A stretch of DNA of 64,000 nucleotides, taken from the NCBI GenBank assembly GCA_963744145.1, contig CAVUSO010000001.1, forward strand, positions 5,088,001 to 5,152,000, in the 5' to 3' direction. The number at the start of each line of letters is the position of its first letter. The first letter of the stretch is position 1. The stretch comes from an uncultured cyanobacterium (GTDB lineage: Bacteria > Cyanobacteriota > Cyanobacteriia > Cyanobacteriales > CAWUOF01). Below, piece by piece: positions 1,813 to 22,712 of this stretch. The notes beneath the pieces are model-generated. The model saw nothing but the letters and a program-made list of their open reading frames with translations, did no database searches and was not told the origin of the DNA. Position numbers and translations under genes: made by a program.

Positions 1813-3302
1813 CTACGGTGTACACACAAGTTGAGATAGAGTAAGGAGAGAAGGGAAGTAAGGAGAAAAAAGTAGTGGAAAATCCAATTTTAATTCATGT
1901 GCAACAATGTGAGAGAACAGCATTCGGAGATCCAAGACTGGGAAAAAGAGGGGCTTCATTGTATGCAGCAATGGCACAACATCAATCAGTAAATATTCGG
2001 AAAATCAGTAAAAATCGAGCCGAGCAAGTTGGATATTACCGATTTTTAGGGAATGAGAATGTAAAAACTGGAGAATTAGTCGTAAGTTTAGGAGAGCATT
2101 GCGCCTTACAGGTAGATGGAAAACACCACGTCTTAGCGATAAGTGATAGTAGTGAAATTAACTTAGAGTCTCACAAAGGGAGATTGAAATCCGAGGGAAT
2201 TGGAGTAGTAGGAAACAATCAAGATATCGGATTTTATATTCATCCCACACTGGTATTAGATGCAGAAAATGGATTCCCACTTGGATTAAGTACAGTGCAA
2301 TTGTGGACAAGAGAACCTGACCATCAGGATCAGCATGAAAGAAAATATAAAAACTTACCGATTGAAGAAAAAGAATCCTATAAATGGCTCAAGTCAGCCG
2401 CTCAAACCCGCACCTGTTTCAGCTGGTCTAATATGAAAATGGTGACTCATATAGGCGATCGGGAAAGCGATATATTTGAAGAATTTGTCAGAGTACCTAA
2501 TCAACAGCATCATCTCTTAATTAGAGTCGGACAGAACCGTCGGCTCAAAGAGCAGTCTGAGTCTCTGTATACCTATTTAAGTCAGCAACATTGTGAAGGA
2601 ACTTATGCCATTGAAGTCCAGGCTGACTCACGGGTTGGACGAACAGCGAGAGAAGCATTCATGTTAGTACGTTGTGCCCTCGTTCAAATTCAGCGTCCTG
2701 AGCATTTATCTGCCGCAGATTATCCAGAAAGTGTCAATCTTTACGCAGTGGAAGCTGTAGAAGTCAATCCACCAAAAGGTCAACAACCGATTCACTGGCG
2801 ATTACTCACTACACATAGAGTAGTTTGTATTGAACAAGCATTACAAGTAATTGAATGGTACAAATGGCGCTGGCGGATTGAACAACTGTTTGCTACCCTC
2901 AAATCCGTTGGCTTAGATCTCGAAGCAACTCAATTAGAGTCAATTAAATCTATTCAAAAATTGTGTGTTTTAGCTTTATCGGTAGCTGTCAGAATTTTGC
3001 AGTTAATTGTCGGGCGTGACCAGCCTGAATTACCTGCAACCTACGCATTCAATGATGAACAACAGCAATGTTTATCCCAGATTGCTCCCACTGTTTCCGG
3101 ACCAACTTTAGCACAACAAAATCCTTATCCACCTCATTCTTTACCTTGGGCAACTTGGATTATTGCTCGACTGGGTGGTTGGTCTGGCTATCGGTCTCAA
3201 AAACCGCCAGGAATTACTACTTTAGTGCGCGGACTAAGCCAATTTCAATCCTTTTTTGATGGCTGGAAACTCGCTCTAGGTATGGTTGTGTGTACACCGT
3301 AG
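1813..3302 (+). mobile_element. IS4-family (IS50/Tn5-like) insertion sequence
   Basis: 17-bp terminal IRs CTACGGTGTACACACAA (1813-1829) and TTGTGTGTACACCGTAG (3286-3302); direct repeat CCCTAGGAGGG at 1802-1812 and 3303-3313. Confidence 0.92.
1875..3302 (+). CDS. IS4-family (Tn5-like) DDE transposase
   Basis: FGDPRL N-terminus, EKESYKW, GDRESDI, YKWRWRIEQLFATLK (YREK motif), IARLGGW. Confidence 0.95.
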   Translation: MENPILIHVQQCERTAFGDPRLGKRGASLYAAMAQHQSVNIRKISKNRAEQVGYYRFLGNENVKTGELVVSLGEHCALQVDGKHHVLAISDSSEINLESHKGRLKSEGIGVVGNNQDIGFYIHPTLVLDAENGFPLGLSTVQLWTREPDHQDQHERKYKNLPIEEKESYKWLKSAAQTRTCFSWSNMKMVTHIGDRESDIFEEFVRVPNQQHHLLIRVGQNRRLKEQSESLYTYLSQQHCEGTYAIEVQADSRVGRTAREAFMLVRCALVQIQRPEHLSAADYPESVNLYAVEAVEVNPPKGQQPIHWRLLTTHRVVCIEQALQVIEWYKWRWRIEQLFATLKSVGLDLEATQLESIKSIQKLCVLALSVAVRILQLIVGRDQPELPATYAFNDEQQQCLSQIAPTVSGPTLAQQNPYPPHSLPWATWIIARLGGWSGYRSQKPPGITTLVRGLSQFQSFFDGWKLALGMVVCTP

Positions 3303-3610: not shown

Positions 3611-4606
3611 ATGTCAAAAAAATTTCCCACCAATAGCGATCGAGATGTTTTATCAACATCCCTGGTTGAAGAGTTTCTGAGTTTAGCCAATTTTCAGCGA
3701 GCCTGGGAAAAGGTAGCTTTCAATAAAGGTAGTGCTGGGATTGATGAAGAAACGATCGATAAATTTAAGCAGAATTTAAAAGCAAATCTTTCTCAATTGA
3801 GAGAATCTGTTGCTAATAGTACCTATCAAGCACTTCCCTGTAAACAAGTTTTAATCCCTAAAAATCAAGACAGTTGGCGAGAATTAAGAATTCCGGCTGT
3901 TAGAGATAGAATTGTTCAGCAAGCTTTATTAAATGTTCTTGCTCCAGTCTGGGAAAATAAGTTTTCTAAGTCTAGTTTTGCTTATCGTCCAGATTTATCT
4001 TACTTAGATGCTGTTGAAGAAGTCGCTCGCTGTCGAGATTTAGGTTATGTATGGGTACTGGATGCAGACATCACTCAATATTTTAATAATATTGACCACC
4101 AAAGGTTATTGAGAGAAGTTAGAAAGCACATCGATAATCCAGGGATTCTCTGTCTGATTAAATCTTGGATTTCTACTGAAATCGCCACAGAACAGGGAGT
4201 GATTAGAAATGAAAAAGGAATTCCTCAAGGTGCTGTGATTTCGCCTTTATTAGCTAATATTTACTTGGATGAGTTTGACCATTTTTTCTCTGATTCTGAG
4301 TTGCAGTTAATCCGTTATGCTGATGATTTTTTGGTATTAGCTTACTCCCGAGAGCAAATTGTTCAAGCTTATTCAGAAGTAAACCGATTACTCAAATCAA
4401 TGGGATTAGAGCTACATTCTGAGAAAACTCAGATTACCAGTTTTGAGCGGGGATTTCGATTTTTAGGTCATGGTTTTTTAGAAAATGCTATTTTTCCTTT
4501 GGAGTCTGCTAAAACTCAGCAGAAGTTAGTATCAGGAGAAAGTAATGGTAAAAAAAAAGTCTCCTGCTCGAAACAGAAAAGGAAACGGAAGCGGCATCTG
4601 CGTTAA
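3611..4606 (+). CDS. CRISPR-associated reverse transcriptase (N-terminal part of a split RT-Cas1)
   Basis: Group II intron-like RT motifs KGSAGID, IPAVRDRIVQQA, GIPQGAVISPLLANIYLD, RYADD and FLG; no maturase or HNH tail; lies directly upstream of cas1-cas2. Confidence 0.93.
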   Translation: MSKKFPTNSDRDVLSTSLVEEFLSLANFQRAWEKVAFNKGSAGIDEETIDKFKQNLKANLSQLRESVANSTYQALPCKQVLIPKNQDSWRELRIPAVRDRIVQQALLNVLAPVWENKFSKSSFAYRPDLSYLDAVEEVARCRDLGYVWVLDADITQYFNNIDHQRLLREVRKHIDNPGILCLIKSWISTEIATEQGVIRNEKGIPQGAVISPLLANIYLDEFDHFFSDSELQLIRYADDFLVLAYSREQIVQAYSEVNRLLKSMGLELHSEKTQITSFERGFRFLGHGFLENAIFPLESAKTQQKLVSGESNGKKKVSCSKQKRKRKRHLR

Positions 4607-4638
4607 GTCTTTCTCCGGTAGCTTCTACCCCTTTAGAG

Positions 4639-5697
4639 GTGGTTAAATCTGAGGGTTTTGAGGATGCTTCTAAAAATATTTGGAACAAGAACATGGCTAC
4701 TATTTATTTAATTGAACAAGGAACGGCGGTTTATAAAGAAAATTTGCGGTTTGTGATTTGGGTTTCTGATGAAGAAAGAAAAGAAATTCCCATTCGAGAA
4801 GTGGAAAGAATTCTGGTGTTTGGTAATATCCAAGTTTCAACTCAAGCGATAAATGCTTGTCTGGAAGAGAAAATCATCATTCTATTTTTAAACCGGTCCG
4901 GGCACTATAAAGGTCATCTTTGGAATTGGGAACATACCCATTTAGCTAATGAATTATTGCAAATTCAAAAATGGCAAAATATGCCGTTTCAATTACAAGT
5001 TTCTCAAGCAATTGTTCGCGGAAAGTTACTGAACTCGAAGCAATTATTGTTAAGGTTAAACCGGAAACGGAAAGTAGCAGAAGTTGCCCGGGCGATCGCG
5101 GGTATTAGTTCTGATATTAACACTCTGACGACAGTTGATAATCTTGATAGTTTACGGGGTTATGAAGGTATTGGTGCCGCCCGATATTTTCCAGCATTTG
5201 GTAAATTAATTACTAATTCTGGGTTTAAATTTTCTCTACGAAACCGTCAACCTCCCACCGATCCTGTTAATTCTTTATTAAGTTTTGGCTACACCCTTTT
5301 ATTTAATAATGTTTTGAGTTTAATCGTAGCTGAGGGTCTGTCTCCTTATTTTGGTAATTTCCACTATGGAGAAGATAAAAAACCCTATCTGGCTTTTGAC
5401 CTGATGGAAGAGTTTCGATCGCCGATTGTTGATGGTCTGGTGATCAAATTAATCAATAGCTCGGTTTTCAAGCCTACTGACTTTGAATTTGTTGCTAGCA
5501 CACAAGGAGTTTATTTAAGACATTCTGCTAGACGAGGGTTTCTCGAACAGTTTGAAAAACGTATGAATGAAGAAGTTTCTCATCCTGATTTACAATCGCA
5601 AGTTTCTTATCGAGAGGCTATTCAATTGCAGGTTCGACGCTACAAACGTAGTCTGTTACATGGGCTTGACTATGAACCTTTTTTGAGAACGATATAA
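4639..5697 (+). CDS. cas1: CRISPR-associated integrase Cas1 (conserved domain starts at ATG 4693; frame open from 4552)
   Basis: GYEGIGAARYF, DPVNSLLSFGY, GNFH and LAFDLMEEFR motifs. Confidence 0.96.
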   Translation: MVKSEGFEDASKNIWNKNMATIYLIEQGTAVYKENLRFVIWVSDEERKEIPIREVERILVFGNIQVSTQAINACLEEKIIILFLNRSGHYKGHLWNWEHTHLANELLQIQKWQNMPFQLQVSQAIVRGKLLNSKQLLLRLNRKRKVAEVARAIAGISSDINTLTTVDNLDSLRGYEGIGAARYFPAFGKLITNSGFKFSLRNRQPPTDPVNSLLSFGYTLLFNNVLSLIVAEGLSPYFGNFHYGEDKKPYLAFDLMEEFRSPIVDGLVIKLINSSVFKPTDFEFVASTQGVYLRHSARRGFLEQFEKRMNEEVSHPDLQSQVSYREAIQLQVRRYKRSLLHGLDYEPFLRTI

Positions 5698-5713: not shown

Positions 5714-5986
5714 ATGGTGGTTGTAGTGTACGACATTCCCGATGATAAAAGACGCACCAAGTTGTCTAATTTTCTAGAGGGCTATGGGACAAGAGTTCAG
5801 TGGTCTGTGTTTGAGTGTTTTATCACCTTAGACGAGATGCGAGTGTTACATGAGAAGGTGAAAAAACTTGTCAAGTCAGCGGAAGATGATGTTCGTTTCT
5901 ACTGGCTCTCTCCTGAAGCTGGGTCAATGGTTTTAACTATTGGTAGCGAAAAGCCTCAACCTCCCCCAAAGTATTATGTAATCTAG
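5714..5986 (+). CDS. cas2: CRISPR-associated Cas2
   Basis: VVYDIPDDKRR, YGTRVQWSVFEC; directly follows cas1. Confidence 0.96.
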   Translation: MVVVVYDIPDDKRRTKLSNFLEGYGTRVQWSVFECFITLDEMRVLHEKVKKLVKSAEDDVRFYWLSPEAGSMVLTIGSEKPQPPPKYYVI

Positions 5987-6442: not shown

Positions 6443-6921
6443 TTAGAAGGTGGACACTAAGTTTTTCCATATCCTGACTCAAAGTTTTCTTAGTGGTTTT
6501 GGTGTGTAGATACGAGAACTTGTTGATCCATATTTTGCTGTCTACTATCTCAAAGTCTTGCTATATAAAGGTTTTCAAAGATTATGGGAGTTTTGCTATA
6601 CTTACCGACACACCTCTGAGCTTGCTTGGCTGCTTTGGTGTGTCGGTACGAGAATTTGTTAATGTCTGTTTTACATTCTACTAGGTCAAAGTCTTGCAGC
6701 ATAAAGCTTTTAAAGAATTACGGGAGTTTTGCTATGCTTGCCGACACACCTCCGCTGATGCTGAAAACGCCTATTTTCTCGTTGAAGTGTGTCGATGCCT
6801 TGTCAGATATAGGTTTCAGACTGCTTATTTTTGATGCTATATTCATCCTGGCTTGTGCTAAAATGAGGTGTGTCGATTTGACGGCTGAAACTCTCTCTGG
6901 GTATAGGCTGCCAGACGAACT
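6443..6921 (+). promoter_or_regulatory. CRISPR leader with internal ~120-bp tandem duplication
   Basis: Non-coding stretch between cas2 and the first repeat; repeated GTGTGTCG and inverted CGACACAC motifs; candidate extended -10 TGcTAAAAT at ~6856-6864. Confidence 0.75.
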
Positions 6922-9900
6922 CCCTACCGATGGGCTTAAATCGGACTAGTTGGAAACCATTCGGACTTCCCAGGACCTAGGTGCCTTGCAATCCATCCCT
7001 ACCGATGGGCTTAAATCGGACTAGTTGGAAACCCTGTGTCGTGACAATCCATACAGTGACCATTCTCCGTGCCCTACCGATGGGCTTAAATCGGACTAGT
7101 TGGAAACGAGAAATTGCTGCACAAATAATTCCCTAGGGAACCCTACCGATGGGCTTAAATCGGACTAGTTGGAAACTTTCCTAAGAAACGTCCGTCGATG
7201 TCAGTTTTTGACTTTCCCTACCGATGGGCTTAAATCGGACTAGTTGGAAACGACCAAATTGGATAAACCTCTCCAATTTGGTAGTACCCTACCGATGGGC
7301 TTAAATCGGACTAGTTGGAAACGCGCATTAAACACTGCCTTTTGGCAGTTTCCGTTTATGGTGCCCTACCGATGGGCTTAAATCGGACTAGTTGGAAACA
7401 ATGTCATATCGTTCCTGGATGGGCATGGGATTTTTGAGCTGCCCTACCGATGGGCTTAAATCGGACTAGTTGGAAACGTTGCCTTTTGGCAGTTCGAATT
7501 GACGGTGACGCCACCGGCCCTACCGATGGGCTTAAATCGGACTAGTTGGAAACAAAGCGACGCCAACACCAACACAAGAAGCAACATTTTTGACCCTACC
7601 GATGGGCTTAAATCGGACTAGTTGGAAACACAACGACAGGATGTCGCCCGGAAGGGCAGCTAACTTGCCCCTACCGATGGGCTTAAATCGGACTAGTTGG
7701 AAACCTGGCGTCAACGCTGTGCGCGCCTTGTTGTTGGTCGCCCTACCGATGGGCTTAAATCGGACTAGTTGGAAACCTAACTCGTCATACAGACCAGCAG
7801 CCCGGAAGGTTGCTAGCCCTACCGATGGGCTTAAATCGGACTAGTTGGAAACGGAATTATTCCGCTTGTCGTAGTTAAAAATTACACCACCCTACCGATG
7901 GGCTTAAATCGGACTAGTTGGAAACGCCCAGAACCAAAGAAAACATTAACAAAGCGGAAACCCTACCGATGGGCTTAAATCGGACTAGTTGGAAACCCGT
8001 GAACATCGGGGCAGACGTAGGTGTCCCCCCCTTTACCCTACCGATGGGCTTAAATCGGACTAGTTGGAAACACAAGCGGGGCGCCCCTGTGAGTCCTTAG
8101 GGCACTCTTCCCCTACCGATGGGCTTAAATCGGACTAGTTGGAAACTTTTTTGATTGAGCGGATAACACCCTGGCGGGTGCTTCCCTACCGATGGGCTTA
8201 AATCGGACTAGTTGGAAACTTTTTTGGGCAGGACCGGTTTACCGTCTGGCCCCAACCCACCCTACCGATGGGCTTAAATCGGACTAGTTGGAAACCGACC
8301 TCCCTTTCGGTCAACCACCACGGGGCCCTACCGATGGGCTTAAATCGGACTAGTTGGAAACTGCTGGTCTTGGGAACAACCGTAGACGGTGTTCCCCCTA
8401 CCGATGGGCTTAAATCGGACTAGTTGGAAACCTGTAGTCTTGAACATAAGCTGGGTGTTGTGCGACCCTACCGATGGGCTTAAATCGGACTAGTTGGAAA
8501 CTTGCAATCGTCGAGGACCTGCTGCTGTCTGACCCTACCGATGGGCTTAAATCGGACTAGTTGGAAACCCCCAAAACCTCGATAGAGGAGGTAAGGTAGG
8601 GTAGTTTTAACCCCCTACCGATGGGCTTAAATCGGACTAGTTGGAAACCGACCGTCACGCTCCTCAATGATTATGGAGCCCTCCCTACCGATGGGCTTAA
8701 ATCGGACTAGTTGGAAACCAGTCGAGGCTGTGGGGTGCGTTCTTTGCAGCCGTCGAGGCCCTACCGATGGGCTTAAATCGGACTAGTTGGAAACGTCCAA
8801 GTGCCCCCGAGGATATCGCATTGTGCTTTAGTTGCCCTACCGATGGGCTTAAATCGGACTAGTTGGAAACCTTTCGCTTAAGTTGGTGTAGGTAGGGGAA
8901 AACCCTACCGATGGGCTTAAATCGGACTAGTTGGAAACTATATACGATGAGGTGAGGACCATCTCCGCTATTGACCCTACCGATGGGCTTAAATCGGACT
9001 AGTTGGAAACTTTCCGTCAGACGAGCATTCCGTTTCCGCTACCTTCCCTACCGATGGGCTTAAATCGGACTAGTTGGAAACCTGTCGGCAGCGTTGAAAT
9101 TGAAGTATCCAACACACCCCTACCGATGGGCTTAAATCGGACTAGTTGGAAACGTATTGTTGCTAAGGAGCAACTTATAACGTACCCCGCCCTACCGATG
9201 GGCTTAAATCGGACTAGTTGGAAACTCTTCTGGTCAACCACAACAGGGTGTTGCCCTGTTGGACAACCCTACCGATGGGCTTAAATCGGACTAGTTGGAA
9301 ACTATATTAGCTACAAAAAGACTTGCAGCCGAAAAAGCAGAACCCTACCGATGGGCTTAAATCGGACTAGTTGGAAACGACATCGTGTGCGCCCGACTGT
9401 TGGTCGGGGTTACACCCCTACCGATGGGCTTAAATCGGACTAGTTGGAAACACCGTTATGGTGGTGTGGATGTGCTGGTCTGGCAACTGGCCCTACCGAT
9501 GGGCTTAAATCGGACTAGTTGGAAACTGGCAGGTTGGCCCGCCATCGATGCTGTGTACCGCCCTACCGATGGGCTTAAATCGGACTAGTTGGAAACGACA
9601 TCGAACCTTATGATGCCCAGCGGGGCGATGGCAGCCCTACCGATGGGCTTAAATCGGACTAGTTGGAAACTTACAGGCTAGATCAAGTGTCGCGGGTGCT
9701 TAGGACCCTACCGATGGGCTTAAATCGGACTAGTTGGAAACTTTTTAGCAGACATATTTTTTCGTCCTTAGATAAAAGCCCTACCGATGGGCTTAAATCG
9801 GACTAGTTGGAAACGCTCGGTGCACCATGCTTCTGTCACATCTTGGGCCGTGCCCTACCGATGGGCTTAAATCGGACTAGTTGGAAACTTTTACGTATCT

Positions 9901-11362
9901 CTCACTCATCATTGAGTGATATACGCCCTACCGATGGGCTTAAATCGGACTAGTTGGAAACGACTGACTGTTGGAAGTCAGGTACTGTCCCGCCCCTACC
10001 GATGGGCTTAAATCGGACTAGTTGGAAACTTTTTACAGGTTCCCAAGGCTTCCCCGTTGGAGTCCTTCCCTACCGATGGGCTTAAATCGGACTAGTTGGA
10101 AACAGTACAGAAGCAACAGCAACACCGATACCAACAATAACACCACCCTACCGATGGGCTTAAATCGGACTAGTTGGAAACTTTATCGAGACGCCACCGG
10201 TGGCGTCTATATCGTGCGACCCCTACCGATGGGCTTAAATCGGACTAGTTGGAAACTTTATCGGGGGTGGGATGGCAAACGATCACTTTGCCCCTACCGA
10301 TGGGCTTAAATCGGACTAGTTGGAAACGCGAGGTTGCAGTCAGTATCGTACCACTGCACTCCACCCCTACCGATGGGCTTAAATCGGACTAGTTGGAAAC
10401 GTCTGACAGCTCTTGCCGTCAGCGGAACACTCGGTTTCCGCCCTACCGATGGGCTTAAATCGGACTAGTTGGAAACTTTTCTCCTATCCCCGTTAGCCTA
10501 GATCATTAGCTTTACTTCCCTACCGATGGGCTTAAATCGGACTAGTTGGAAACTCTGTCTTTCCGTTAGCGGTCCAGGTACCGCCTACCCTACCGATGGG
10601 CTTAAATCGGACTAGTTGGAAACAGGTTATTGTTGCTACGAAGTTTAAGGAATTGAAAGATCCCTACCGATGGGCTTAAATCGGACTAGTTGGAAACCAA
10701 ACAAAGTCGCAGAAGAATCGAATACAAAGCCCTACCGATGGGCTTAAATCGGACTAGTTGGAAACCCTTGACTACAGCGGCAGCAGCAGCAACACCAAGC
10801 AAAGCCCTACCGATGGGCTTAAATCGGACTAGTTGGAAACGCAATAGCAGCAAGGGCTAGAAGGGCTAGTAGAGCAACACCCTACCGATGGGCTTAAATC
10901 GGACTAGTTGGAAACTTGAAAGCGCCGCTTCAGCTCTGGTGAGCTGTTTGGCCCTACCGATGGGCTTAAATCGGACTAGTTGGAAACGCTGTAAAAGGAC
11001 TCCACGGCCAGCGTTGTTATCCCTACCGATGGGCTTAAATCGGACTAGTTGGAAACCTACGGCAACAGCAACAACAAACAATTTGATAGAAGACCCCTAC
11101 CGATGGGCTTAAATCGGACTAGTTGGAAACTAGAGCATCCCGCTCTTCAATTAGGAGCGTTCCTTTCTTCCCCACGCCCTACCGATGGGCTTAAATCGGA
11201 CTAGTTGGAAACAAGGGACGGTTGGACCAAATGCTGGGAAATCTACCAACCCTACCGATGGGCTTAAATCGGACTAGTTGGAAACGTGTACAGTTCAGCC
11301 TTAATCGCTGCTATTGCAGCTTTAGGCCCTACCGATGGGCTTAAATCGGACTAGTTGGAAAC
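6922..11362 (+). CRISPR. CRISPR array, 61 identical 36-bp repeats and 60 spacers (30-46 bp)
   Basis: Repeat CCCTACCGATGGGCTTAAATCGGACTAGTTGGAAAC with CCGAT/ATCGG stem and GAAAC end; counted manually; orientation from leader position and 3' GAAAC. Confidence 0.98.
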
Positions 11363-11599: not shown

Positions 11600-12934
11600 T
11601 TATCTATCAAAAAGCTGAAGCGTTAAATTGACTAAAAGTTTAGCCAAAGCTTTTACTATTGGGCGATTAGAAACATCTTCTCCGCGTTCCAAATGATGAA
11701 CTTTACCTGTCAAGATCGGATCTTTACTGGTAATTTCGTCATTTTTACCGTTGTAATCACTATAAATAATTGCAATGACTTCTACAGGTTGAGCAAGATT
11801 TTTTTCACAAAGTTCTTTCCATGCAGCTACATCAGCTTCAGTTTTTGCTAAAATAACTGCATGAGTAGCTTGAGACATAATGTCTTTATCCTCATAGATG
11901 GGAATTTTACCACCCACATCAAACAGTAACAGAGAGTTTTTAATTACCTTAAGCTCTCGGGTTTTTGCTTTAGCGAATTCGGGGGTAAATTTTGCCTTAT
12001 ACTCATCTTTTAGTTTTCGAGCTAAATCAGGATAATTAGCAACTGTTTCTGAGTACCAAGATCCATCACCATCGGGACAGCCAGAGACGGTATAAAAATC
12101 ATCAGGAGCATTGTCTAAATTTAAAATTGCTGTCTTTAATCCGTCTCTCAGTACAGTTTTTCCCGTATTTGGCGGTCCACATAAGACGACTTTAACTGTA
12201 GGTTGTGGATCATAATTAATATCAAAAGTTTCGCCAACTTGATAGTCTTTACCATGACTCGTCACTACCACATATCGATCTGATCCTTTATCTCCCTGTT
12301 TAGGATCAAAAACTGCTACACTGCTATACAGATGCGCCACTTTATTAGCGATCGCAAAACTAGCTAAGACTGTTGAACGTCCATTAATTCTAAGCACTTG
12401 TTTACCCCCAGAGAGTTGTCCTGAACTTATTAATTGATCTAATTGTGCTTCTGCATCTAGGAGGATTTGGTCACCATCAACTTTAATCCCATTGTTAATT
12501 TTGGCAATTAGAACATCCTCTTCCCAATAGATTAAAAATGAGGGATGATCGCTAGGATGAGAAGAAACTTGTTTAACTTCACCAGTAATCATGTCAATGC
12601 GACTACCGACAGGATACTCAGAAGCGGTACTTATGACCACAATGTATGCACCTAAGCGGGTATCGGAAACAGCGATCGCACGATACAAATGAGCCAACTC
12701 ATGGGTCAAGGTATAACCACCTAGCACCGAAATTCTGCCATTAATTTTCAGTAAGTTTCCACCTTTAATTTCCTCAGCAGCAATCATGTCCCGCAGTTGC
12801 GTTGCTAGATCCCGCACAATTTGGTCCCCATCAGCGGGAATTGGTTCTCCCTTTGCATTTTTAGCAAAATCTACTTTTAAGGTATCCCCTTCTAACCGAA
12901 TTTGATAGCTAGTCTTGGTTATTCCGGTATTCAT
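11600..12934 (-). CDS. csx3: Tandem Csx3 (Crn3 ring nuclease) domains fused to a P-loop NTPase
   Basis: Two repeats of L(K/R)INGR...AHLY..(I/V)AV.D...Y(I/V)VV; C-terminal GPPNTGKT, CPDGDGSW and DVGGK; likely start ATG 12934. Confidence 0.8.
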   Translation of the reverse strand: MNTGITKTSYQIRLEGDTLKVDFAKNAKGEPIPADGDQIVRDLATQLRDMIAAEEIKGGNLLKINGRISVLGGYTLTHELAHLYRAIAVSDTRLGAYIVVISTASEYPVGSRIDMITGEVKQVSSHPSDHPSFLIYWEEDVLIAKINNGIKVDGDQILLDAEAQLDQLISSGQLSGGKQVLRINGRSTVLASFAIANKVAHLYSSVAVFDPKQGDKGSDRYVVVTSHGKDYQVGETFDINYDPQPTVKVVLCGPPNTGKTVLRDGLKTAILNLDNAPDDFYTVSGCPDGDGSWYSETVANYPDLARKLKDEYKAKFTPEFAKAKTRELKVIKNSLLLFDVGGKIPIYEDKDIMSQATHAVILAKTEADVAAWKELCEKNLAQPVEVIAIIYSDYNGKNDEITSKDPILTGKVHHLERGEDVSNRPIVKALAKLLVNLTLQLFDR

Positions 12935-13040
12935 AGCTCTGATGTCCTGTGCATAAGTGATGAGGTTTATTCTCTCATCCCTATGGAAAGGGAGGTTTCC
13001 AAAGCCTGTTAATTTGGAAAAGGAACTGAGCGGGATTAAC

Positions 13041-14507
13041 ATGATGTTTGGTAAAACCTTTGATTTGTGCCCCAGTGTAGACCTGTTACAAGTGCTAGCA
13101 AGAGGTTCTTTGAGACAAAATTTGCCAAAAGCAGTGCGGTTATGGGTCCTATTGCGATCGCTGTACGGGGATGAAGCTGATCCCATGCGGTTGGATCTGG
13201 GTGAAAATTTTACTTACAGTGAGTGGAACAAACTATTTTTTAATCTAACCAATCATGAACATAAAAATTACAAAATTCCGACTGATCACGATCCCCAGTG
13301 TCATTGTGCTAAAACAATTAGTGATTGGTTATTCGATTCTAATATGGGTTGTGATCCTACAACATGGCAACATTCATTCTTACAACTTTATTCTATGTCT
13401 CAACCCGAATTAGATAGCTTGCTGTTATCGGGAATTATCAATAAAGACGGAGAAAATTCCAACAAGCAAACACCTCTACCAGGTGGTCGTTTATTTGCGA
13501 TCACGAGTAAAAATATTCAATATGATTTTGGAGCATTGGTGGAAATGGGATGGCTAAAAATTCAGAAAATAACAAGTTGTAATAGTAAAAGATGTAAAAC
13601 TCTCTATTGTCGCGTAGAAGATTTTCCGAATCTTGGTATTTATCCCAATCCTCCTATTGCTCAATCGGAAATTAAAGTCAGTAATGTTATTCAAAATGAC
13701 CTGGCTGATTTTTTTAATGATTTCGGAGGTGAAATTAATGGTAAACAGCGCTTCTTTTTAGATATTGAGTATATTGTTCCTGCAAATTTTTCCCAGCAAA
13801 TTAACACCATCAGACAACAACTGAAAGAAGTTTGGCAGCAATCAATAGTACCACCGATAAAAATAACATATATCAGTGCTAGAAATTATCAAAGCTATCA
13901 AGATGAAGGAGAAGAATATATTGTTTATCCAGTTTGCATCTATTATTCCCATCGCGCACCTTATTTATTTAGCTTTGGTCAAGATCCTGTAAATAAAGGT
14001 AAAATTGGCTGGTATGATTATCGATTAGACCGAATACAGAAATTAGAACAACTAACCTGGGATCAAGTTAAAATTGCCGATTTCTCTGAACAGATTTGTC
14101 AGGGAAAAACACCAAGTCATATTGAAGACTTAAGAAATGAAGCGTGGGGATTTGATTTTTACAAACCAAAAAAGTTAATGCTGTTGCGATTCGATCGCTA
14201 TTTTCATAATCGCTATATTGAGGGAACTGAACGGGAAAAAAGATTTCAGAAAATTCCTTACAGATATGCTAAAAGTCTGGTGGAACAAGAACCAATTGAC
14301 AGTGAACTTAAACAGCAAACTTTAGCGATTTTCAAGTCTCGTTCGACCACAGATATTTATTGTCGAGTTAATTATCGTGTAGATGATAATAATGTGATTA
14401 TGAGATTGAGAGCGTGGGGTGCTATGGTAGAAGTATTTTTACCTTGGGAATTGCGATCGCTGATGGCTAAAGAAATTGAAGATAATTACCATCTTTATCA
14501 TAATTGA
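13041..14507 (+). CDS. CRISPR-associated WYL-domain protein (sll7078/TIGR03985-like)
   Basis: LARGSLRQNLPKAVRLWVLLRSLYG N-terminus, VYPVCIYY..RAPYL, WYDYRLDRI, RLRAWGAMVEVFLPWELR. Confidence 0.85.
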   Translation: MMFGKTFDLCPSVDLLQVLARGSLRQNLPKAVRLWVLLRSLYGDEADPMRLDLGENFTYSEWNKLFFNLTNHEHKNYKIPTDHDPQCHCAKTISDWLFDSNMGCDPTTWQHSFLQLYSMSQPELDSLLLSGIINKDGENSNKQTPLPGGRLFAITSKNIQYDFGALVEMGWLKIQKITSCNSKRCKTLYCRVEDFPNLGIYPNPPIAQSEIKVSNVIQNDLADFFNDFGGEINGKQRFFLDIEYIVPANFSQQINTIRQQLKEVWQQSIVPPIKITYISARNYQSYQDEGEEYIVYPVCIYYSHRAPYLFSFGQDPVNKGKIGWYDYRLDRIQKLEQLTWDQVKIADFSEQICQGKTPSHIEDLRNEAWGFDFYKPKKLMLLRFDRYFHNRYIEGTEREKRFQKIPYRYAKSLVEQEPIDSELKQQTLAIFKSRSTTDIYCRVNYRVDDNNVIMRLRAWGAMVEVFLPWELRSLMAKEIEDNYHLYHN

Positions 14508-16499: not shown

Positions 16500-18272
16500 G
16501 TGAGTCAAATATATACTGCGATCACCTTTGCCCCAGTGCAAAGTTTTATTGAAAAATCCCGTAAATTGCGAGATTTATATGGGAGTTCATTTATCTTATC
16601 CTACTTAGCCGTGGAAATTTGTAGAGCAGCTAGGCGCGATCGCAATGTTCCAGAAGATAATCCCCCTCCGGAAATTGACCCGATCATCTCACCAGCACTC
16701 ATCAACGTCACTCAAGGGACGCCTAATCAAATAATTATTCGAGGAGATTACAAAAAAGATAACGCTGAAACCGCCTTTGCTGAAGCTTGGGATGCAGTGA
16801 TAGAAGGTTGTCGTCAGTGGATCGAAGACAATGTTAAAACTTGTGGGCAGTATTACTGGAGGAGGAACTGGGATGGGTGGAAACATCATGCTTGGGAGTT
16901 TTTTTGGGGACAAGGACAAAATATCGGTGAAGCAAGGAATGCGGTTAATGAAGCCAAGCGATCGCGCAATTGGATAGCAATAAACTGGGTAGGAGAAAGT
17001 TCGACTTTATCTGGTGCCGATGGGGTCGCGTGGCCAGGTTTAGGCAAGAATAATCCGAAGTATTCTAATTACCAGCAGCAAAAATTGGAGATTGAAGGTT
17101 TTTATCAGCGACTAAGTTTGAAACTGGGAGAAGCTTTTGCAGAAGCCGCAAATCTCAATGTAGATGAAGAAAAGAAAAAAGAATATGGTGCGGCGTTTGT
17201 TGACCCTGATGAAGAATTAAGCATACCTGAATTAGTGAAGCGGTTAATTACGCATCTAGCGATCGCTGAGAGAATTGTCGCGCGATTGAAACAACCAATT
17301 ACTAAAAGAGAACTTAAAGAAAGGTTGAAGCAACTGAGTGAAGAACTAAATCCCGATAGTTTTAGAGATTTAAGTCGCTTAAAACACAAAAATAAAAAAG
17401 CCCAGACATCAGTCCCAGAATATTATACTGGTTGGTTTCAGGGAGACGGCGATCGCATGGGCGATTTAATGAAAAGACTCTCTAACGAGGACAATCCTGA
17501 AATTGAAGCCCAAGAACTTCATAAATTTAGTCGGGCGATGATGAAATGGGGAGAAAAAAACTTCAAGCCCAACCTGAATGCTTCTAACGGTCGTACAGTT
17601 TATGCTGGTGGTGATGACTTTCTTGGGATTTTTTACCCCTTACCAAAAAATCCGTCACAAAAGCAGCAATTTATCCCTCTGACCGGACAAGATTGCATCA
17701 ATTGGTTTTATGAATTTCCCGCTCTTTGGAAACAGCACAAACAACCCGTAAGTGTTAGTGTTGGATTTGTCTGGGCAGCACCCAATGTACCACAAAGAGA
17801 CGTTTTACAGCACTGCCATTCAGCTGAATCTTCAGCAAAAAAGAGTGGCAAAGACCGTATTGCATTGCGGGTGCTATTTAACGGTGGTACTCATATAGAA
17901 TGGGTATGTCCTTGGTGGTTTTTAGAAGTATTAAAACACTATCAAGATAGAGATGGCAACACTTTAAAATCTTTGTCAAAAGGGAATAAAACTAAACCAA
18001 ACTGGACTCACCTTTATAACGATGTTGCTACTTTAGAATCGCGCCACGCATTTTACGGTAATACTAAAATTGCCCAAGCACTCTTTCAAATTTATTTTCC
18101 TGAGTGCAAGGATTTTATTCACCATGATTATTGGTGGGTACATTGCTATAGAGATGAATTGAGAACGGGCATTTTAGGACATGAACAAAAAAATGCCAAA
18201 AAAGATGTTACTGAACTGTTTAACGAATGGGTTATTAACTTAGCAAAAGTAGGATTTCACTTATGCACATAA
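16500..18272 (+). CDS. cmr2: Type III-B Cas10/Cmr2 lacking HD domain, with intact GGDD palm
   Basis: ITFAPVQSFIEKSRKLRDLYGSS, WFQGDGDRMG, VYAGGDDFLG. Confidence 0.95.
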   Translation: MSQIYTAITFAPVQSFIEKSRKLRDLYGSSFILSYLAVEICRAARRDRNVPEDNPPPEIDPIISPALINVTQGTPNQIIIRGDYKKDNAETAFAEAWDAVIEGCRQWIEDNVKTCGQYYWRRNWDGWKHHAWEFFWGQGQNIGEARNAVNEAKRSRNWIAINWVGESSTLSGADGVAWPGLGKNNPKYSNYQQQKLEIEGFYQRLSLKLGEAFAEAANLNVDEEKKKEYGAAFVDPDEELSIPELVKRLITHLAIAERIVARLKQPITKRELKERLKQLSEELNPDSFRDLSRLKHKNKKAQTSVPEYYTGWFQGDGDRMGDLMKRLSNEDNPEIEAQELHKFSRAMMKWGEKNFKPNLNASNGRTVYAGGDDFLGIFYPLPKNPSQKQQFIPLTGQDCINWFYEFPALWKQHKQPVSVSVGFVWAAPNVPQRDVLQHCHSAESSAKKSGKDRIALRVLFNGGTHIEWVCPWWFLEVLKHYQDRDGNTLKSLSKGNKTKPNWTHLYNDVATLESRHAFYGNTKIAQALFQIYFPECKDFIHHDYWWVHCYRDELRTGILGHEQKNAKKDVTELFNEWVINLAKVGFHLCT

Positions 18273-19546
18273 CATCAACATCTATCGCAGAGGAAAAAAA
18301 ATCAGAAAATCCGCCATTTTCCCACATAATTGTGATTAAACCGTTAGGATTTCTCTATGGCAGTGCTGGAAAGTTTTTATCACCAGAAAACTTAGTCGGA
18401 CGTTCTGGAACTAGCTTTCCTCCTAGTGCTGCCACTTTATCAGGTATTTTTGCGGCTTCCTTACCGCCCGATAAAATCAAAAATTTGCAGTTGGCTGGGC
18501 CTTTTTGGGCATGGAGTCACAATCCGCAAAATTTTTATGTTCCTACTCCTTTTAATTGCTTAGTCAAGGATAAAAAAATTCATCAGCAAATCGCGTGGTT
18601 CCAACAATGTAAAGATCCATGTAAAGGACGATGGTTAGCACAATTTAGGGTGTGGCAAAAGATCAATGGAGAGTTAGTAGGGTTAGATTTATATAAAACA
18701 CCACCTAATGATAAGTTTGAAAGCAAAACTTGGTTACCAATCAGACATTGGAAACGAATAAGACATAAAATAAATAAAGATAAAAACTTATTCAAGGAAA
18801 CCATACCCCAAGAAGAAAATTGCTTTCCTCAACTTAAAGTTGAATCACCCCCTTGGGAATTTGTCCCTCACCTGCACCCGCGACTACAAGAGGATCAAAG
18901 ACGAGTTATAAAGCCTGAAGAAGAACGAGAAAGGGGCAGTTTATTTTTAGAAAACGGAGTGCAATTAAATCCCGATGCGTGCTTAGTTTATTTGTCAAAT
19001 ATTTCTATTCCCGATGGTTGGTATCGGTTTGGTGGTGAAGGTCATTTAGTAGATTTGCGTTGTGAGAATATATGCCAAACTGTTACTGATTTACTCAAAG
19101 AAAAGTTAGGGCACAGTTTTGCATTAATCACTCCAGCAGTATGGGGTTCTAATCGGCTGTCTTACCGCGAACCAATGGTACAGGAAAATCAGGATAAAAA
19201 TGGTGAGTGGGTTCCTGCTTGGAAACGGGAAGCTTTACTGACAGAACGTAGTATCCCTTTCCGTTATCGCTTAGGAAATCCTCAACAATCGGCAGAAGGT
19301 GAGAAACGAAAAAGTAATGAAAAATTGCTGTCTCGCGGACGGTATGCGATGCCAGCAGGCAGTGTTTATGTGTTAGAAAAACCTCTCCCATCTTGGCAAG
19401 AATGGGATAAAGATTGGTTTCCCAAAGAAGGTGTTTCATTTAAACGTTGGGGTTGTGGGCTATCGTTACCTTTGGAAAGCGCACTTGTTCAAGAGTCAGA
19501 TCCACAAACAGCTAATACTTCTGAAATTTCCCTAGGAGATAATTAA
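18263..19546 (+). CDS. cmr3: Type III-B Cmr3 (Cas5 group)
   Basis: LYGSAG..LSPENLVGRSG, WYRFGGEGH, LITPAVWGS, RYAMPAGSVYV, WGCG; position after cmr2. Confidence 0.9.
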   Translation: MHITSTSIAEEKKSENPPFSHIIVIKPLGFLYGSAGKFLSPENLVGRSGTSFPPSAATLSGIFAASLPPDKIKNLQLAGPFWAWSHNPQNFYVPTPFNCLVKDKKIHQQIAWFQQCKDPCKGRWLAQFRVWQKINGELVGLDLYKTPPNDKFESKTWLPIRHWKRIRHKINKDKNLFKETIPQEENCFPQLKVESPPWEFVPHLHPRLQEDQRRVIKPEEERERGSLFLENGVQLNPDACLVYLSNISIPDGWYRFGGEGHLVDLRCENICQTVTDLLKEKLGHSFALITPAVWGSNRLSYREPMVQENQDKNGEWVPAWKREALLTERSIPFRYRLGNPQQSAEGEKRKSNEKLLSRGRYAMPAGSVYVLEKPLPSWQEWDKDWFPKEGVSFKRWGCGLSLPLESALVQESDPQTANTSEISLGDN

Positions 19547-20431
19547 ATGTATCACAAAGCTTATGGAATTATTGAAACCTTAGCCCCTTTACATATTGGA
19601 GCGACAGCAGGAGAAGAAACAGGAAATTTAAACTTGATTTTCCGCGATCAGTTTACCAAAACTGGGATTATTCCCGGTAGTTCAATTCGAGGAAGATTTC
19701 GCGCTGATATGCGATCACAAAATGGGAAAGTTTCTGAATGGTACGGTCACGAAGCGGTTGCAGGACAACAAGATGGCGGCACTACGGAAGCATCAGTTAA
19801 ATTTGAATATGCGTCTTTAGTATGGTTACCTGTTTTTTGTCCAGGTCAACCGATCGTTTGGGTAAGTTGTCCTTCACTGCTAAAACGTTACCAGCAAATC
19901 ACTCAAATTGATCGCAAGATCGATATTCCCAAACCTTACACGGCTGATCATGGATTAGAAGCGCGGTTAGTACCAGGAACAACTGAAAAAGTTTTATTCT
20001 TTAACTTGGGTTTTTTAGGGATTGAACATCAGGAAAATTTAGCCGTTTGGATTCCGATCGGTGCTGACTTACCTAAAAAACAATTAGTTGTTGTTGATGA
20101 TAACGATATCTCTATGCTGCATGATATGGCTTTGTATCGTCAAAGTCGTATTAAGATGCTGGATAATATGAAGAAAGTAGATACAAGAACGGGTGCTTTT
20201 TTTAATGTAGAAGCCTTGCCCGTTGGTAGTATTTTAGTGTTTCCAATAGCATCAAAACAATTCGGCTGGCAACCCTTTGGCAACCTGCAAAAAGATAAAA
20301 ATTATTCTCAAGAACTGTATTTTGGGGGATTAGAATCAATTGGATTTGGTCGGTGTAATGTAACCCTGGTAGGAGAAGCACTTGATCAGCCAGAAAATAT
20401 TCAAGCAACTACACAGGAGGTTAATAGCTAA
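19547..20431 (+). CDS. cmr4: Type III-B Cmr4 (Cas7 group RAMP)
   Basis: PLHIGA, IIPGSSIRGRFR, FGGLESIGFG glycine-rich loop. Confidence 0.95.
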   Translation: MYHKAYGIIETLAPLHIGATAGEETGNLNLIFRDQFTKTGIIPGSSIRGRFRADMRSQNGKVSEWYGHEAVAGQQDGGTTEASVKFEYASLVWLPVFCPGQPIVWVSCPSLLKRYQQITQIDRKIDIPKPYTADHGLEARLVPGTTEKVLFFNLGFLGIEHQENLAVWIPIGADLPKKQLVVVDDNDISMLHDMALYRQSRIKMLDNMKKVDTRTGAFFNVEALPVGSILVFPIASKQFGWQPFGNLQKDKNYSQELYFGGLESIGFGRCNVTLVGEALDQPENIQATTQEVNS

Positions 20432-20955
20432 TGGCTTGGAAATATTACAATTTCGAGGAAAATGGTCAGCAGTTACACAGTTTAGATCAAGTAGCGCAAA
20501 ATCTGGTTTTGGCGGCTAAGGAACGATTGGTGAAGGATGACAGGGGACGGATTGTTTTAGATGACAATGGACAAGGTAAACATTCGCTCAATCAATCCTT
20601 TAAAATGCGGGAAGCAGTTGCTTACGGGTTAGAGCGTTTTTGGGGAGAGCATTTGCGTTTTCAAGGTAAATCGAAGTTTAATTGCGATGAATTTGATAAT
20701 AAATCTAAGTATTGGAAGGATACTTGGGATGCTTTAGTGATAATTATGCGGCAAGGTGGTGTCATTATTCCCAATGATTCAGTTCATATTGACAGACCGA
20801 ATTCTGTGAAGTCAATGGCACAGAAATTATGGGCTTTGGATATTAAAGACCAGCGAATTATCTTGGCTGTTTTGACACAGTTATGCGATTCCATTGTCTG
20901 GTGGACACAGCGGTATAAAGGACCTGGGGATTTAACAATTGATGAAGATAATTAG
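20431..20955 (+). CDS. cmr5: Small subunit Cmr5 (Cas11)
   Basis: KMREAVAYGLERFWGE and LTQLCDSIVWWTQRYK; operon position. Confidence 0.8.
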   Translation: MAWKYYNFEENGQQLHSLDQVAQNLVLAAKERLVKDDRGRIVLDDNGQGKHSLNQSFKMREAVAYGLERFWGEHLRFQGKSKFNCDEFDNKSKYWKDTWDALVIIMRQGGVIIPNDSVHIDRPNSVKSMAQKLWALDIKDQRIILAVLTQLCDSIVWWTQRYKGPGDLTIDEDN

Positions 20956-20966
20956 GAGATTAAATC

Positions 20967-22712
20967 ATGGTAAATATTCCCAATGCAGCTAATCTAATTC
21001 CCTTAATGTTTCAGGCACAAGCGAAAGGGCGATCGCAACTTCAGTACATTGATAGTACCAAAGAAGCCGAGGAACAAGATTCTTACAAATGGGCTGCTCA
21101 GTGGACTGATAAAGCTTATCCCAATCCGCCAGAATTTGGTGATAAGACATCTACAAAAATCTATCAAATCCAGTGGCGTTTTGTTACTAATGGCGGACAA
21201 TATGAAGGAATTATTTTTCCTGCCCTTGGTGCTTTTGGGTTACCTTTTTATCCAGGTAGCAGTATGAAAGGCGCATTTTGTCAAGCTTGCACTGATGACC
21301 AGAAAAAACGCTACCGTTTGACTAAAAATGGTGATGAACCAAGTTTATTACGCTTTCACGGTGGTTATCCGGTGAATGATTGGAAGGAGAATTTAGTAGA
21401 TATTGTTCATCCACAACAAGGATGGCAGATCAAAACATCTAATACCGCTCAAAAACCAGGAGGTGAAACAGGTTTTGCCCTAATTTCTTTATGGCAACCT
21501 ATTATTAAATTTGGAATTTCTAGTTTATTACCAGAAACTAATTGGGATGAAGTTTGGGCAATTTGGGAAAAAGCTTTAGGTTATGGAATTGGCTGTCGTA
21601 CCAGTAGTGGGTATGGGTTGCCAAAAGAGCGTTTAAATGAGAAAGGAGAAGTGGATTGTCCGATCCAAGTTCAGGGGGAAGTTCTCTATAAAGCTCATTT
21701 AAAAGGACAGGGACAAGCGCCAACTTTGATCGATAAAACTCCGGAATTTCGCCCAAATATTTTTAGGGGAAGTTTGCGGAGTCATGCTTTGCGGATTTTT
21801 GGAGGATTAACGAATTCAAAAACCGCAGAAAAGTTAGTAGAAAATTTATTTGGTGGAGTGAATGATGGTGGAACTCAGGGATTATTAACTTGCGTGTTTC
21901 AATCCTCATCTTTAAAACTAGGTGAGTTTACTGATGGATATAACGAGCCAACTTACAAAGTAGCTGGAGAATTACGTTGGTTATTGATGTCACCCCGTCA
22001 ATTGGATGAAAACAAAAAGGAGGTACTGAAAAGGTTATTAAGGGCTTTAATGCAGTTTGCAATGTTATTTGGTGGTTTTGGTAAGTCGTGGCGACGGGTC
22101 GATCATCGCCTATTTCCCTATGAATATAAAAATCATAGAGGTCAATTTGAAAACTACTACGATCGTCATCAACCACTGATTGGCTGTCACTGGGAGTGGA
22201 ATAGAAATTCCCTAATAAATGCGACTAATATTCCCTCTTTGAATCGCGTTGCGTCGTTTATTAATAAACTGAGAGAAATTGCTGGTGAATGGATGCACCT
22301 AAATAACTTAGAACCGAATGAAAATCAATATTCTCCTTGGCGAGAATCTTGGCATCCTGAGACTGTGCAAGTATGGGGACGATTGGCTGATGGAGCTGAT
22401 CATTGTGTTGCTATTAAATGGCTTCATGAAGCTTATCAAAGAGCTGATCGTCGTACCGGAATACCTGAGTTAAGGATTAAAAAAACTTCTGTTACTGGTT
22501 GCATAAATAAAATTAGTAGGCTTTGGCTTCGGATGTATCCAGTAGTTCGGCTGGTAGACGATCTAAACAATCCAGGGAAGAAAATCCCAAAGCTGACTCC
22601 TAATTATCTGGAACTATTGACTATTTTTCCTGATGATTCAGATGATTTCAATAATTTTGTCAATTTTCTCGATTCAGAGCCAGAAGGGTTTCGACAGCTT
22701 TGGTCTCTTTGA
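20967..22712 (+). CDS. cmr6: Cmr6-Cmr1 double-RAMP fusion (III-B variant)
   Basis: Two RAMP modules: YPGSSMKG...GIGCRTSSGYG and EFRPNIFRG...GGFGKSWRR. Confidence 0.85.
   Translation: MVNIPNAANLIPLMFQAQAKGRSQLQYIDSTKEAEEQDSYKWAAQWTDKAYPNPPEFGDKTSTKIYQIQWRFVTNGGQYEGIIFPALGAFGLPFYPGSSMKGAFCQACTDDQKKRYRLTKNGDEPSLLRFHGGYPVNDWKENLVDIVHPQQGWQIKTSNTAQKPGGETGFALISLWQPIIKFGISSLLPETNWDEVWAIWEKALGYGIGCRTSSGYGLPKERLNEKGEVDCPIQVQGEVLYKAHLKGQGQAPTLIDKTPEFRPNIFRGSLRSHALRIFGGLTNSKTAEKLVENLFGGVNDGGTQGLLTCVFQSSSLKLGEFTDGYNEPTYKVAGELRWLLMSPRQLDENKKEVLKRLLRALMQFAMLFGGFGKSWRRVDHRLFPYEYKNHRGQFENYYDRHQPLIGCHWEWNRNSLINATNIPSLNRVASFINKLREIAGEWMHLNNLEPNENQYSPWRESWHPETVQVWGRLADGADHCVAIKWLHEAYQRADRRTGIPELRIKKTSVTGCINKISRLWLRMYPVVRLVDDLNNPGKKIPKLTPNYLELLTIFPDDSDDFNNFVNFLDSEPEGFRQLWSL

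Follow-up and report, generated by a model that had tools for sequence, protein, structure and literature searches.

How can a reverse transcriptase (RT) and the CRISPR adaptation protein Cas1 be made as one protein if they are encoded in different frames, and is the place where this would have to happen a peculiarity of one genome or a conserved device? The question is raised by a locus in a 64,000-nucleotide (nt) stretch of DNA from an uncultured cyanobacterium of the order Cyanobacteriales (assembly GCA_963744145.1, contig CAVUSO010000001.1, forward-strand positions 5,088,001 to 5,152,000), which we call the window and number from its first letter. In it an RT gene lies directly upstream of the Cas1 gene on the same strand, with its stop codon 86 nt 5' of the Cas1 ATG, and the two frames meet at a run of nine A's. 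A first-pass annotation made from the letters alone had proposed this run as the frame-transition site linking the RT to Cas1. The conservation of the run and of the frames around it in homologous loci bears this out: judged by that comparison, a -1 transition at the run has long been under selection, and some such transition very probably yields an RT-Cas1 fusion. The elements on which the argument turns are the following.

3611-4606, + strand: RT gene, 331 amino acids (aa) in the zero frame, the product of standard decoding (Pfam RVT_1, E 1.7e-41, residues 82-288)
4534-4538, + strand: AGGAG, a Shine-Dalgarno (SD)-like motif 11 nt 5' of the A9 run; conservation absent
4549-4558, + strand: T-A9, the putative slip site; three AAA lysine codons of the RT after a codon with a final T
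4549-4551, + strand: TAA stop of the Cas1 (-1) frame, made up of the conserved T with the two A's that begin the run; the Cas1-frame open reading frame (ORF) opens here
4552-4692, + strand: linker in the Cas1 frame, 47 codons, stop-free; first possible start GTG at 4639; ends in SKNIWNKN before the Cas1 Met
4559-4606, + strand: zero-frame tail of the RT-only product, VSCSKQKRKRKRHLR followed by the stop; overlaps the start of the linker
4693-5697, + strand: Cas1, 334 aa from the ATG at 4693 (Pfam Cas_Cas1, E 3.3e-87)

The run itself occupies 4550-4558 and is read in the RT frame as GGT AAA AAA AAA GTC, after which this frame continues for 15 further codons before it stops. The Cas1 frame lies at -1 relative to the RT and, from 4552 onwards, translates without a stop through the linker (KKSLLLETEKETEAASALSLSPVASTPLEVVKSEGFEDASKNIWNKN before the M at 4693) to the end of Cas1. 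All of this had been read correctly at first pass, including the AGGAG placed just upstream of the run. Under standard decoding RT and Cas1 are not one polypeptide, the RT frame ending at 4606, and a single chain needs a -1 transition. Either such a transition or one extra A in the mRNA gives a protein of 695 aa, composed of 316 RT-frame and 379 Cas1-frame codons, with the predicted transframe junction ...SNGKKK/SLLLETEK...

At the DNA level the search covered 41 genomes, namely the window's own and those of 40 relatives of the same order, and returned one locus with 80% and two with about 69% nucleotide identity. These three closest loci come from other genera or families and are built like the window, with T-A9 ending the RT, a 334-aa Cas1 with an ATG at -1, a TAA at the run and an open linker; their linkers are of unequal length and can no longer be aligned as DNA. 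For the wider comparison the best 80 of 260 relatives, one genome per species, were analysed with tblastn and scripts along with the window and two earlier loci. Of these 83 rows 63 combine an RT of at least 55% identity with a downstream Cas1, and the removal of one locus without a run, whose RT apparently lacks its 3' part (L074), and of two exact duplicates (L049 of L048, L015 of L040) leaves 60 loci to which the counts below refer. Loci with no Cas1 in their stretch were left out (L065, L076, L078 and eight distant ones). As an aside, L048 and L049 lie on one contig of a metagenome-assembled genome (MAG) which carries an RT-Cas1 locus at both ends in inverted orientation, probably an assembly palindrome. 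The 60 loci fall into the following classes.

A9, Cas1 at -1, run starting at codon position 1 and preceded by T: 40 of 60
A10, Cas1 at -1: 2 of 60
A9, Cas1 in-frame: 9 of 60
A10, Cas1 in-frame: 4 of 60
Other: 5 of 60 (A8 with Cas1 at +1; A8 in-frame; A10 at -1 in another phase; A9 at +1; A10 in-frame in another phase)

The first two classes together make up the 42 loci that we refer to as split. Both the A-run and the -1 position of Cas1, whose conservation in split cyanobacterial homologues had been suggested as a check on the first-pass annotation, are thus conserved across these 42. Wherever Cas1 is not in-frame it lies at -1 in 43 loci and at +1 in 2, a bias that is not expected of two independent genes separated by a variable spacer. 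Metagenomic contigs, of which the best 80 of 386 relatives were taken and some of which duplicate genome records, give a similar picture: 22 loci with at least 58% RT identity have both run and Cas1, and 14 of them show the canonical A9 with Cas1 at -1. Among the same best 80, 17 loci at 45-51% identity extend into Cas1, and all 17 are in-frame and lack the run. The arrangement is also present in complete plasmid records, each annotated as two genes: pNPM1 of Nostoc sp. N6 has T-A9 with a -1 frame open over 402 codons, pP742401 of Gloeothece citriformis PCC 7424 has A10 with Cas1 at -1, and p1 of Microcystis aeruginosa NIES-2481 has A10 with Cas1 at -1 and a G before the run. Pseudanabaena galeata encodes a plain RT-Cas1 fusion.

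Two genomes were seen to hold two copies of the module, Aetokthonos hydrillicola CCALA 1050 (L023, L060) and Scytonema sp. NUACC26 (L056, L080); one of the Aetokthonos copies is split (A9, -1) and the other in-frame (A9). In L021, the A8 locus with Cas1 at +1, the gap from RT stop to Cas1 start is 52 nt, and the coordinates published for Crinalium epipsammum PCC 9333 in the supplement of PMC5541045 give an equal gap and an equal +1 relation; the two may form a small sub-lineage that is one base off the usual state.

The run is conserved beyond what its coding function would ask for. At least nine A's are present in 58 of 60 loci, A9 itself in 50 of 60, A8 in two and A11 in none, and the run begins at codon position 1 in 56 of 60. 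The three lysine codons are all AAA in 58 of 60 loci, compared to AAA making up 64% of the lysine codons elsewhere in these genes (1318 versus 727 AAG). Likewise, the base before the run is T in 58 of 60, with the same codon families elsewhere having T at the third position in 41% of cases. These T-ending codons are of seven kinds (AGT 25, GGT 13, CGT 13, TCT 3, ACT 2, GCT 1, TGT 1). Given that both AAA and the preceding T lie so far above their baselines, we conclude from the aligned loci that selection acts on the run at the level of nucleotides. As for the T, one could speculate that the RNA-DNA hybrid, with a weak rU:dA pair at its upstream edge, might realign more easily, or that the TAA it creates in the -1 frame might halt ribosomes which have shifted in an A-rich stretch further upstream.

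The second line of evidence comes from the linker. In all 42 split loci the Cas1-frame ORF starts exactly at the TAA of the run, and in all 42 the linker, 44-126 codons from the run to the Cas1 Met with a median of 67, is open: not one stop occurs in its 3058 codons in the Cas1 frame, compared to 227 in 3056 and 165 in 3016 codons in the other two frames, which are open in none of the 42. Nor can independent initiation explain the open frame, since 17 of the 42 linkers offer no ATG, GTG or TTG from the TAA up to the Cas1 Met, and in 37 of 42 no ATG precedes that Met. The linker ends in a conserved motif, s-P-F-Q-K-N-I-W-N-q-E, in which W is found in 59, N in 53 and K in 51 of 60 loci with codons that vary synonymously, and IATLHQPFLAEVETE is common to many linkers of Nostocales and Coleofasciculaceae in the -1 frame. 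In the in-frame loci of the clade, ordinary decoding yields these same linker motifs. Thus, the junction foreseen at first pass (...GKKKSLLLETEK) belongs, on the comparative data, to a frame that evolution has kept open. A weak test, using five independent ungapped pairs, counts 32, 20 and 40 linker substitutions at the three codon positions beyond the RT tail (p = 0.037), and this weak third-position excess fits a loosely constrained linker. Split homologues have basic zero-frame RT tails that show little conservation and reach their stop 14-77 nt past the run start. All 60 loci, and the sister clade as well, have the Cas1 Met, where distant fusions have Leu or Val. A second run, of seven A's, lies about 23 nt before the Cas1 ATG in most loci of Nostocales and Coleofasciculaceae (L023-L068), within the Q-K-N-I-W segment (CAA AAA AAT); the window has only A5 at this position, and the A7 is probably just the coding of QKN.

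To place these states in an evolutionary frame we used a quick maximum-likelihood tree (LG+G4, SH-aLRT support) of RT and Cas1 with 62 rows, from which L025, L053 and L071 were omitted on account of their short Cas1. The run-bearing loci form one clade of 57 rows with an SH-aLRT support of 100. Its sister is a cyanobacterial in-frame fusion without the run (L079), and the run is likewise missing from the outgroups, which belong to Chlorobiota and Acidobacteriota and have RT and Cas1 fused in-frame. Within the run-bearing clade there are at least 13 changes between the split and the fused state, and the fused forms sit at tips beside split relatives. Two routes to the in-frame state can be recognized, namely an extra A in the run, as in L054 with A10 as against A9 in L053, L055 and L059 with identical flanks, and a small change right after the run, as in L027 and L062, which are without the GT that L044 has. 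The outgroups point to a plain fusion as the ancestral state, for which this clade would have swapped in a gene that makes RT by default and needs a slip for the fusion.

The kind of event that effects the transition, its probable mechanism at the RNA level, its efficiency and its purpose we infer as follows. Standard decoding would give a free RT of 331 aa with its stop 15 codons past the run. Cas1 alone would also be made, from the invariant ATG at 4693; that this free Cas1 exists is plausible because the Met is invariant throughout the 60 loci. In a fraction of expression events the -1 frame would be entered at the run, giving the 695-aa RT-linker-Cas1 fusion (...NGKKK/SLLLETEK...), a form for which the sister clade and distant relatives have a single continuous frame. 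The principal route, which we rate at even chances, would be transcriptional slippage, wherein the RNA polymerase would shift its register on the nine A:T pairs and insert an A that is not templated, so that the mRNA has A10 in place of A9. An unstimulated -1 slippage of the ribosome on A AAA AAA would lead to the same protein and could contribute. In lineages with an in-frame A9 the same process would leave mostly fusion and some truncated RT. The purpose may be to hold RT-bearing Cas1 in the Cas1-Cas2 integrase at sub-stoichiometric amounts relative to the free RT and the free Cas1, or to lessen the uptake of RNA-derived (self) spacers. The first-pass annotation had suggested that the three products together could tune the acquisition of RNA versus DNA spacers.

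Precedents for such sites are described in PMC1088944, according to which nine nt is the length where selection against slippage shows in many bacterial genomes, and A9 slippage sites occur in the dnaX gene of Thermus and in insertion sequence (IS) elements, including those of Nostoc PCC 7120, with mxiE of Shigella being a further case of slippage at this length. The account of Thermus thermophilus dnaX in that source comes close to the present locus: its coding region has a sense-strand run of exactly nine A's, its two products tau and gamma share an N-terminus, one of the frames meets a stop soon after the run, and neither an SD motif nor a hairpin is necessary. It differs in that the templated frame of dnaX gives the long product and the slip the short one, which is reversed in the RT/Cas1 genes of 42 of 60 loci; the nine in-frame A9 members would run the dnaX way round. 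In Shigella flexneri mxiE and the orfA-orfB pairs of IS elements, as described in the same source, overlapping ORFs are joined by an untemplated base at a homopolymer and the long product needs the slip, just as proposed here. Unlike these, RT-Cas1 is an enzyme of CRISPR adaptation, not a transposase or a regulator, and its downstream ORF has a conserved ATG of its own, so that three products are possible. The first-pass annotation had drawn on E. coli dnaX and IS911 as well as on Thermus dnaX. The former pair does resemble the window in having a slippery heptamer of zero-frame lysine codons, a -1 shift and an AGGAG, here 11 nt upstream; however, those sites are defined by an SD motif and a downstream structure, neither of which is conserved here, and the run is A9 rather than A AAA AAG. 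Of the two analogies it is therefore the A9 transcriptional slippage of Thermus dnaX that fits better.

Several observations count against transcriptional slippage at the run as the account of these loci. Nine in-frame lineages retain A9, though they have no need of it for reaching Cas1. Three loci depart from the pattern, L021 with A8 and Cas1 at +1, L071 with A9 and Cas1 at +1, and L074 with no run. In the window's genome runs of nine are slightly over-represented and runs of ten or more depleted (see below), and slippage at A9 may therefore be inefficient in this organism. Four loci are A10 and in-frame, three of them beside A9 relatives in the tree (L054/L055, L028/L080, L046/L032), as switching in the DNA would produce. 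Finally, the heptamer A AAA AAA stands in phase with the RT frame, the run beginning at codon position 1 in nearly all loci, and the genome has two tRNA-Lys(UUU) genes. The last of these points favour a programmed -1 shift of the ribosome as the main route, in which tRNA-Lys in the P and A sites would re-pair on A AAA AAA of an unaltered A9 mRNA to give the same 695-aa fusion. The comparative evidence for a -1 transition suits this equally well, and the window does have its AGGAG. However, that motif, which had been taken at first pass for a stimulator, fails in this role across the split loci: no conserved upstream SD stimulator was found, with GGAG, GAGG or AGGA occurring within 22 nt in 2 of 42 and AGGAG or GGAGG in 1 of 42. 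No conserved structure was found in the 60 nt after the run either, where pseudoknot-free folding, compared with 100 mononucleotide shuffles per locus, gives a mean minimum-free-energy z-score of -0.33, with 3 of 42 loci below -2. Moreover, seven A's would suffice for the ribosome, yet at least nine are kept in 58 of 60 loci within a poorly conserved segment. The single tRNA-Lys(CUU) gene that is also present matters for the AAG codon alone, which is unused at the site. We prefer slippage of the polymerase because nine A's are kept where the heptamer needs seven and because neither the SD motif nor a downstream structure is conserved, and regard a mainly ribosomal route as rather unlikely. A further alternative, phase variation, which had likewise been named at first pass, places the switch in the DNA: replication slippage between A9 and A10 would leave most cells split (OFF) and rare A10 cells fused (ON), selection on the ON state would keep the linker open, and any recoding at the RNA level would be incidental. 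PMC1088944 considers slippage in replication as another use to which such runs may be put. Apart from the A10 in-frame loci just mentioned, L054 among them with its flanks identical to those of the split A9 loci L053, L055 and L059, it is favoured by a metagenomic contig with A10 (L102) where L057 has A9, and by the origin of the three intact in-frame loci with A10, each of which comes from a MAG, i.e. from a population consensus. Against it stand the uniform tract length, with A9 in 50 of 60 loci, no A11 and A8 in only two, and the fact that at least 16 isolate genomes are A9 and split, the lone in-frame A10 isolate (L077, Calothrix PCC 7103) having a disrupted RT. In addition, near-identical metagenomic copies across samples are all A9 (L107, L108 and L111; L110, L114 and L115), and lineages made in-frame by a change next to the run are still A9. 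Slippage of RNA polymerase at A9 is in any case expected on the grounds given in PMC1088944, and we consider phase variation an improbable explanation.

Two further explanations remain. If there had been a true fission, RT and Cas1 would be independent, with the open upstream frame serving as an N-terminal extension of Cas1 or a regulatory region. Database annotation as separate genes, ltrA or an RT-domain protein plus cas1, in Nostoc N6, Gloeothece PCC 7424 and Microcystis NIES-2481 accords with this, as does the invariant Cas1 Met; in the literature such RTs are tabulated as separate (the records of PMC5541045) or termed secondary fissions (the account in PMC5513706). However, a fission leaves it unexplained why all 42 split loci have a Cas1-frame ORF that starts right at the run, why 17 of 42 linkers have no start codon, why a Cas1 that is not in-frame is so unevenly placed at -1 (43) and +1 (2), and why the linker motifs are shared with in-frame fusions; hence it appears very improbable. 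The other possibility is an artefact or decay, that is, a homopolymer error concealing a true A10, or a recent pseudogenising frameshift in the window's genome. Homopolymers are error-prone on some sequencing platforms. A search of sequencing runs brought up one DNA run with the window locus, two more of the same study and no RNA run, and the contigs of this DNA run, of low depth (about 4), stop at 4392 and resume at 4682, on either side of the nine A's. Sequencing error, which the first-pass annotation had itself named as an alternative, is nevertheless excluded as a general explanation, because 42 independent split assemblies, 40 with A9 and 2 with A10, share the -1 arrangement. A9 with Cas1 at -1 recurs in 40 non-identical assemblies from many projects, the -1 split is also present in complete plasmid records, and the split state persists down to about 58% RT identity; decay is opposed by the array of 61 perfect repeats next to the genes. 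The comparative data thus contradict this possibility, be it artefact or decay, and we find it scarcely credible; an A10 in the window strain would alter the call for this genome, not that for the clade.

A run of nine A's by itself is unremarkable in this genome, and it is the arrangement of frames around it that is unusual. The genome of 7.70 Mb (39% GC) has 263 A/T runs of at least nine, about two per 64 kb. Those of exactly nine number 231, compared to about 162 expected from base composition, while runs of ten (29 versus 49 expected) and of eleven (2 versus 15 expected) are depleted over the whole genome. When the 263 runs were scanned for an upstream ORF of at least 100 codons with a stop within 40 codons of the run, and another frame that opens at the run and continues for at least 100 codons, one of them fitted, namely the RT/Cas1 site. 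The same survey brought up one A20 run (C1:2441219) and several A9 or T9 runs inside repeated ORFs of 292 and 359 codons, which are possibly IS elements.

In-frame RT-Cas1 and Cas6-RT-Cas1 fusions are well known from type III CRISPR-Cas systems, for instance in Marinomonas mediterranea, Vibrio vulnificus and Thiomicrospira. The window locus differs from these in that its fusion would be spread over two frames, with plain fusions in its sister group, e.g. in Pseudanabaena. Such fusions let CRISPR systems record RNA, and their domain architecture has been used for reconstructing how RTs were recruited. In this connection the classification of Toro et al. 2017 is of interest, wherein Table 1 of PMC5541045 gives the cyanobacterial clade RT-CRISPR-5 with three 'RT' and five 'RT-Cas1' records. 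According to the supplement of that paper the 'RT' members come from Rivularia PCC 7116, Crinalium PCC 9333 and Cyanothece PCC 7424, and the fused ones from Leptolyngbya, Nodosilinea, Synechococcus and Pseudanabaena. Silas et al. 2017 (PMC5513706) ascribe such cases to secondary fissions. The window RT has 65.7% identity, over 85% of the RT, to that of Gloeothece citriformis (Cyanothece) PCC 7424, and 48.6% to a Pseudanabaena fusion. Because it is so much closer to a listed 'RT' member than to a fused one, the run-bearing clade is probably, on these pairwise identities, the 'separate RT' part of RT-CRISPR-5. If the slip site does join RT and Cas1, the published fission calls for this cyanobacterial clade need revision.

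Homopolymer slippage and RT-Cas1 adaptation enzymes are both of known kinds, and the proposal made here applies the one to the other, a combination for which we found no published report. The words frameshift and slippage are absent from PMC5513706, PMC8632793 and PMC6013744, neither 'frame' nor 'slippage' is present in PMC5541045, whose supplement was included in the search for mentions of an RT/Cas1 frameshift, and PMC6753606 speaks only of inactivating RT frameshift mutations in some gut strains. Reverse transcriptase goes unmentioned in the main text of PMC1088944 and in that of the frameshift survey PMC3711429, the latter of which is also silent on Cas1 and CRISPR. More generally, a search of the full-text literature yielded no published report of an RT/Cas1 slip site; supplements were covered for PMC5541045 only, so that a mention elsewhere is possible.

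We would entertain, with rather more doubt than belief, a bolder reading under which this is the first recoding event in CRISPR adaptation: at the base of the clade an ancestral in-frame fusion would have given way to a slippage-dependent gene, in which T-A9 holds RT-Cas1 at a low and constant ratio to the free forms of both proteins, and lineages would since have retuned this ratio by flips between the -1 and in-frame states, at least 13 in number, never losing the run. If so, there would be Cas1-Cas2 integrases with one or a few RT arms, which would limit spacers from self RNA, and hence autoimmunity, while the sampling of RNA is kept. Many of the CRISPR-associated RTs that databases list as 'stand-alone' would in that case be fusions in disguise. 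If the slip site works as proposed above, the expression of such 'stand-alone' RTs or Cas1s, for example in RNA-recording tools, would miss the active form, and a CRISPR adaptation enzyme would join the few cellular genes in which homopolymer slippage is put to use. The clade would moreover offer a natural system with a genetically determined proportion of fused and free integrase subunits that a single base can change, making the long-open question of the purpose of the fusion directly testable.

The wider surroundings of the two genes in the window identify the locus as a type III-B system with an RT-containing adaptation module of the RT-Cas1 kind, whose RT domain is of the group II intron-like type.

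5714-5986, + strand: Cas2 (Pfam CRISPR_Cas2, E 6.3e-22)
6922-11362, + strand: CRISPR array, 61 identical 36-nt repeats with 60 spacers
16500-22712, + strand: type III-B effector genes, comprising Cmr2/Cas10, Cmr3 and RAMP proteins (Pfam Cas10-Cmr2_palm2, Cmr2_N, Cas_Cmr3, RAMPs)

Because all 61 repeats of the array are identical, the data suggest that the adaptation module of this genome is in use. The presumed leader, which separates Cas2 from the first repeat, contains a 136-nt unit twice in tandem at 6478-6749, the copies being 77% identical. A 39-nt copy of the first 39 nt of the RT gene (90% identical) lies about 3.9 kb upstream of it, at contig positions 5087697-5087735, i.e. about 300 nt before the window. 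Between the two copies there are an ORF with a helix-turn-helix and an M78-peptidase domain (3-1082) and a DDE transposase (1875-3302), and the arrangement of the 39-nt repeat looks like an insertion beside the adaptation module that duplicated the 5' end of the RT. On the other side, adjoining the array, a WYL-domain ORF (12957-14507, + strand) begins within a Csx3-like ORF of the opposite strand (11600-13186, - strand), and the Cmr genes are directly followed by a CHAT-domain protein of 579 aa (23382-25121, - strand).

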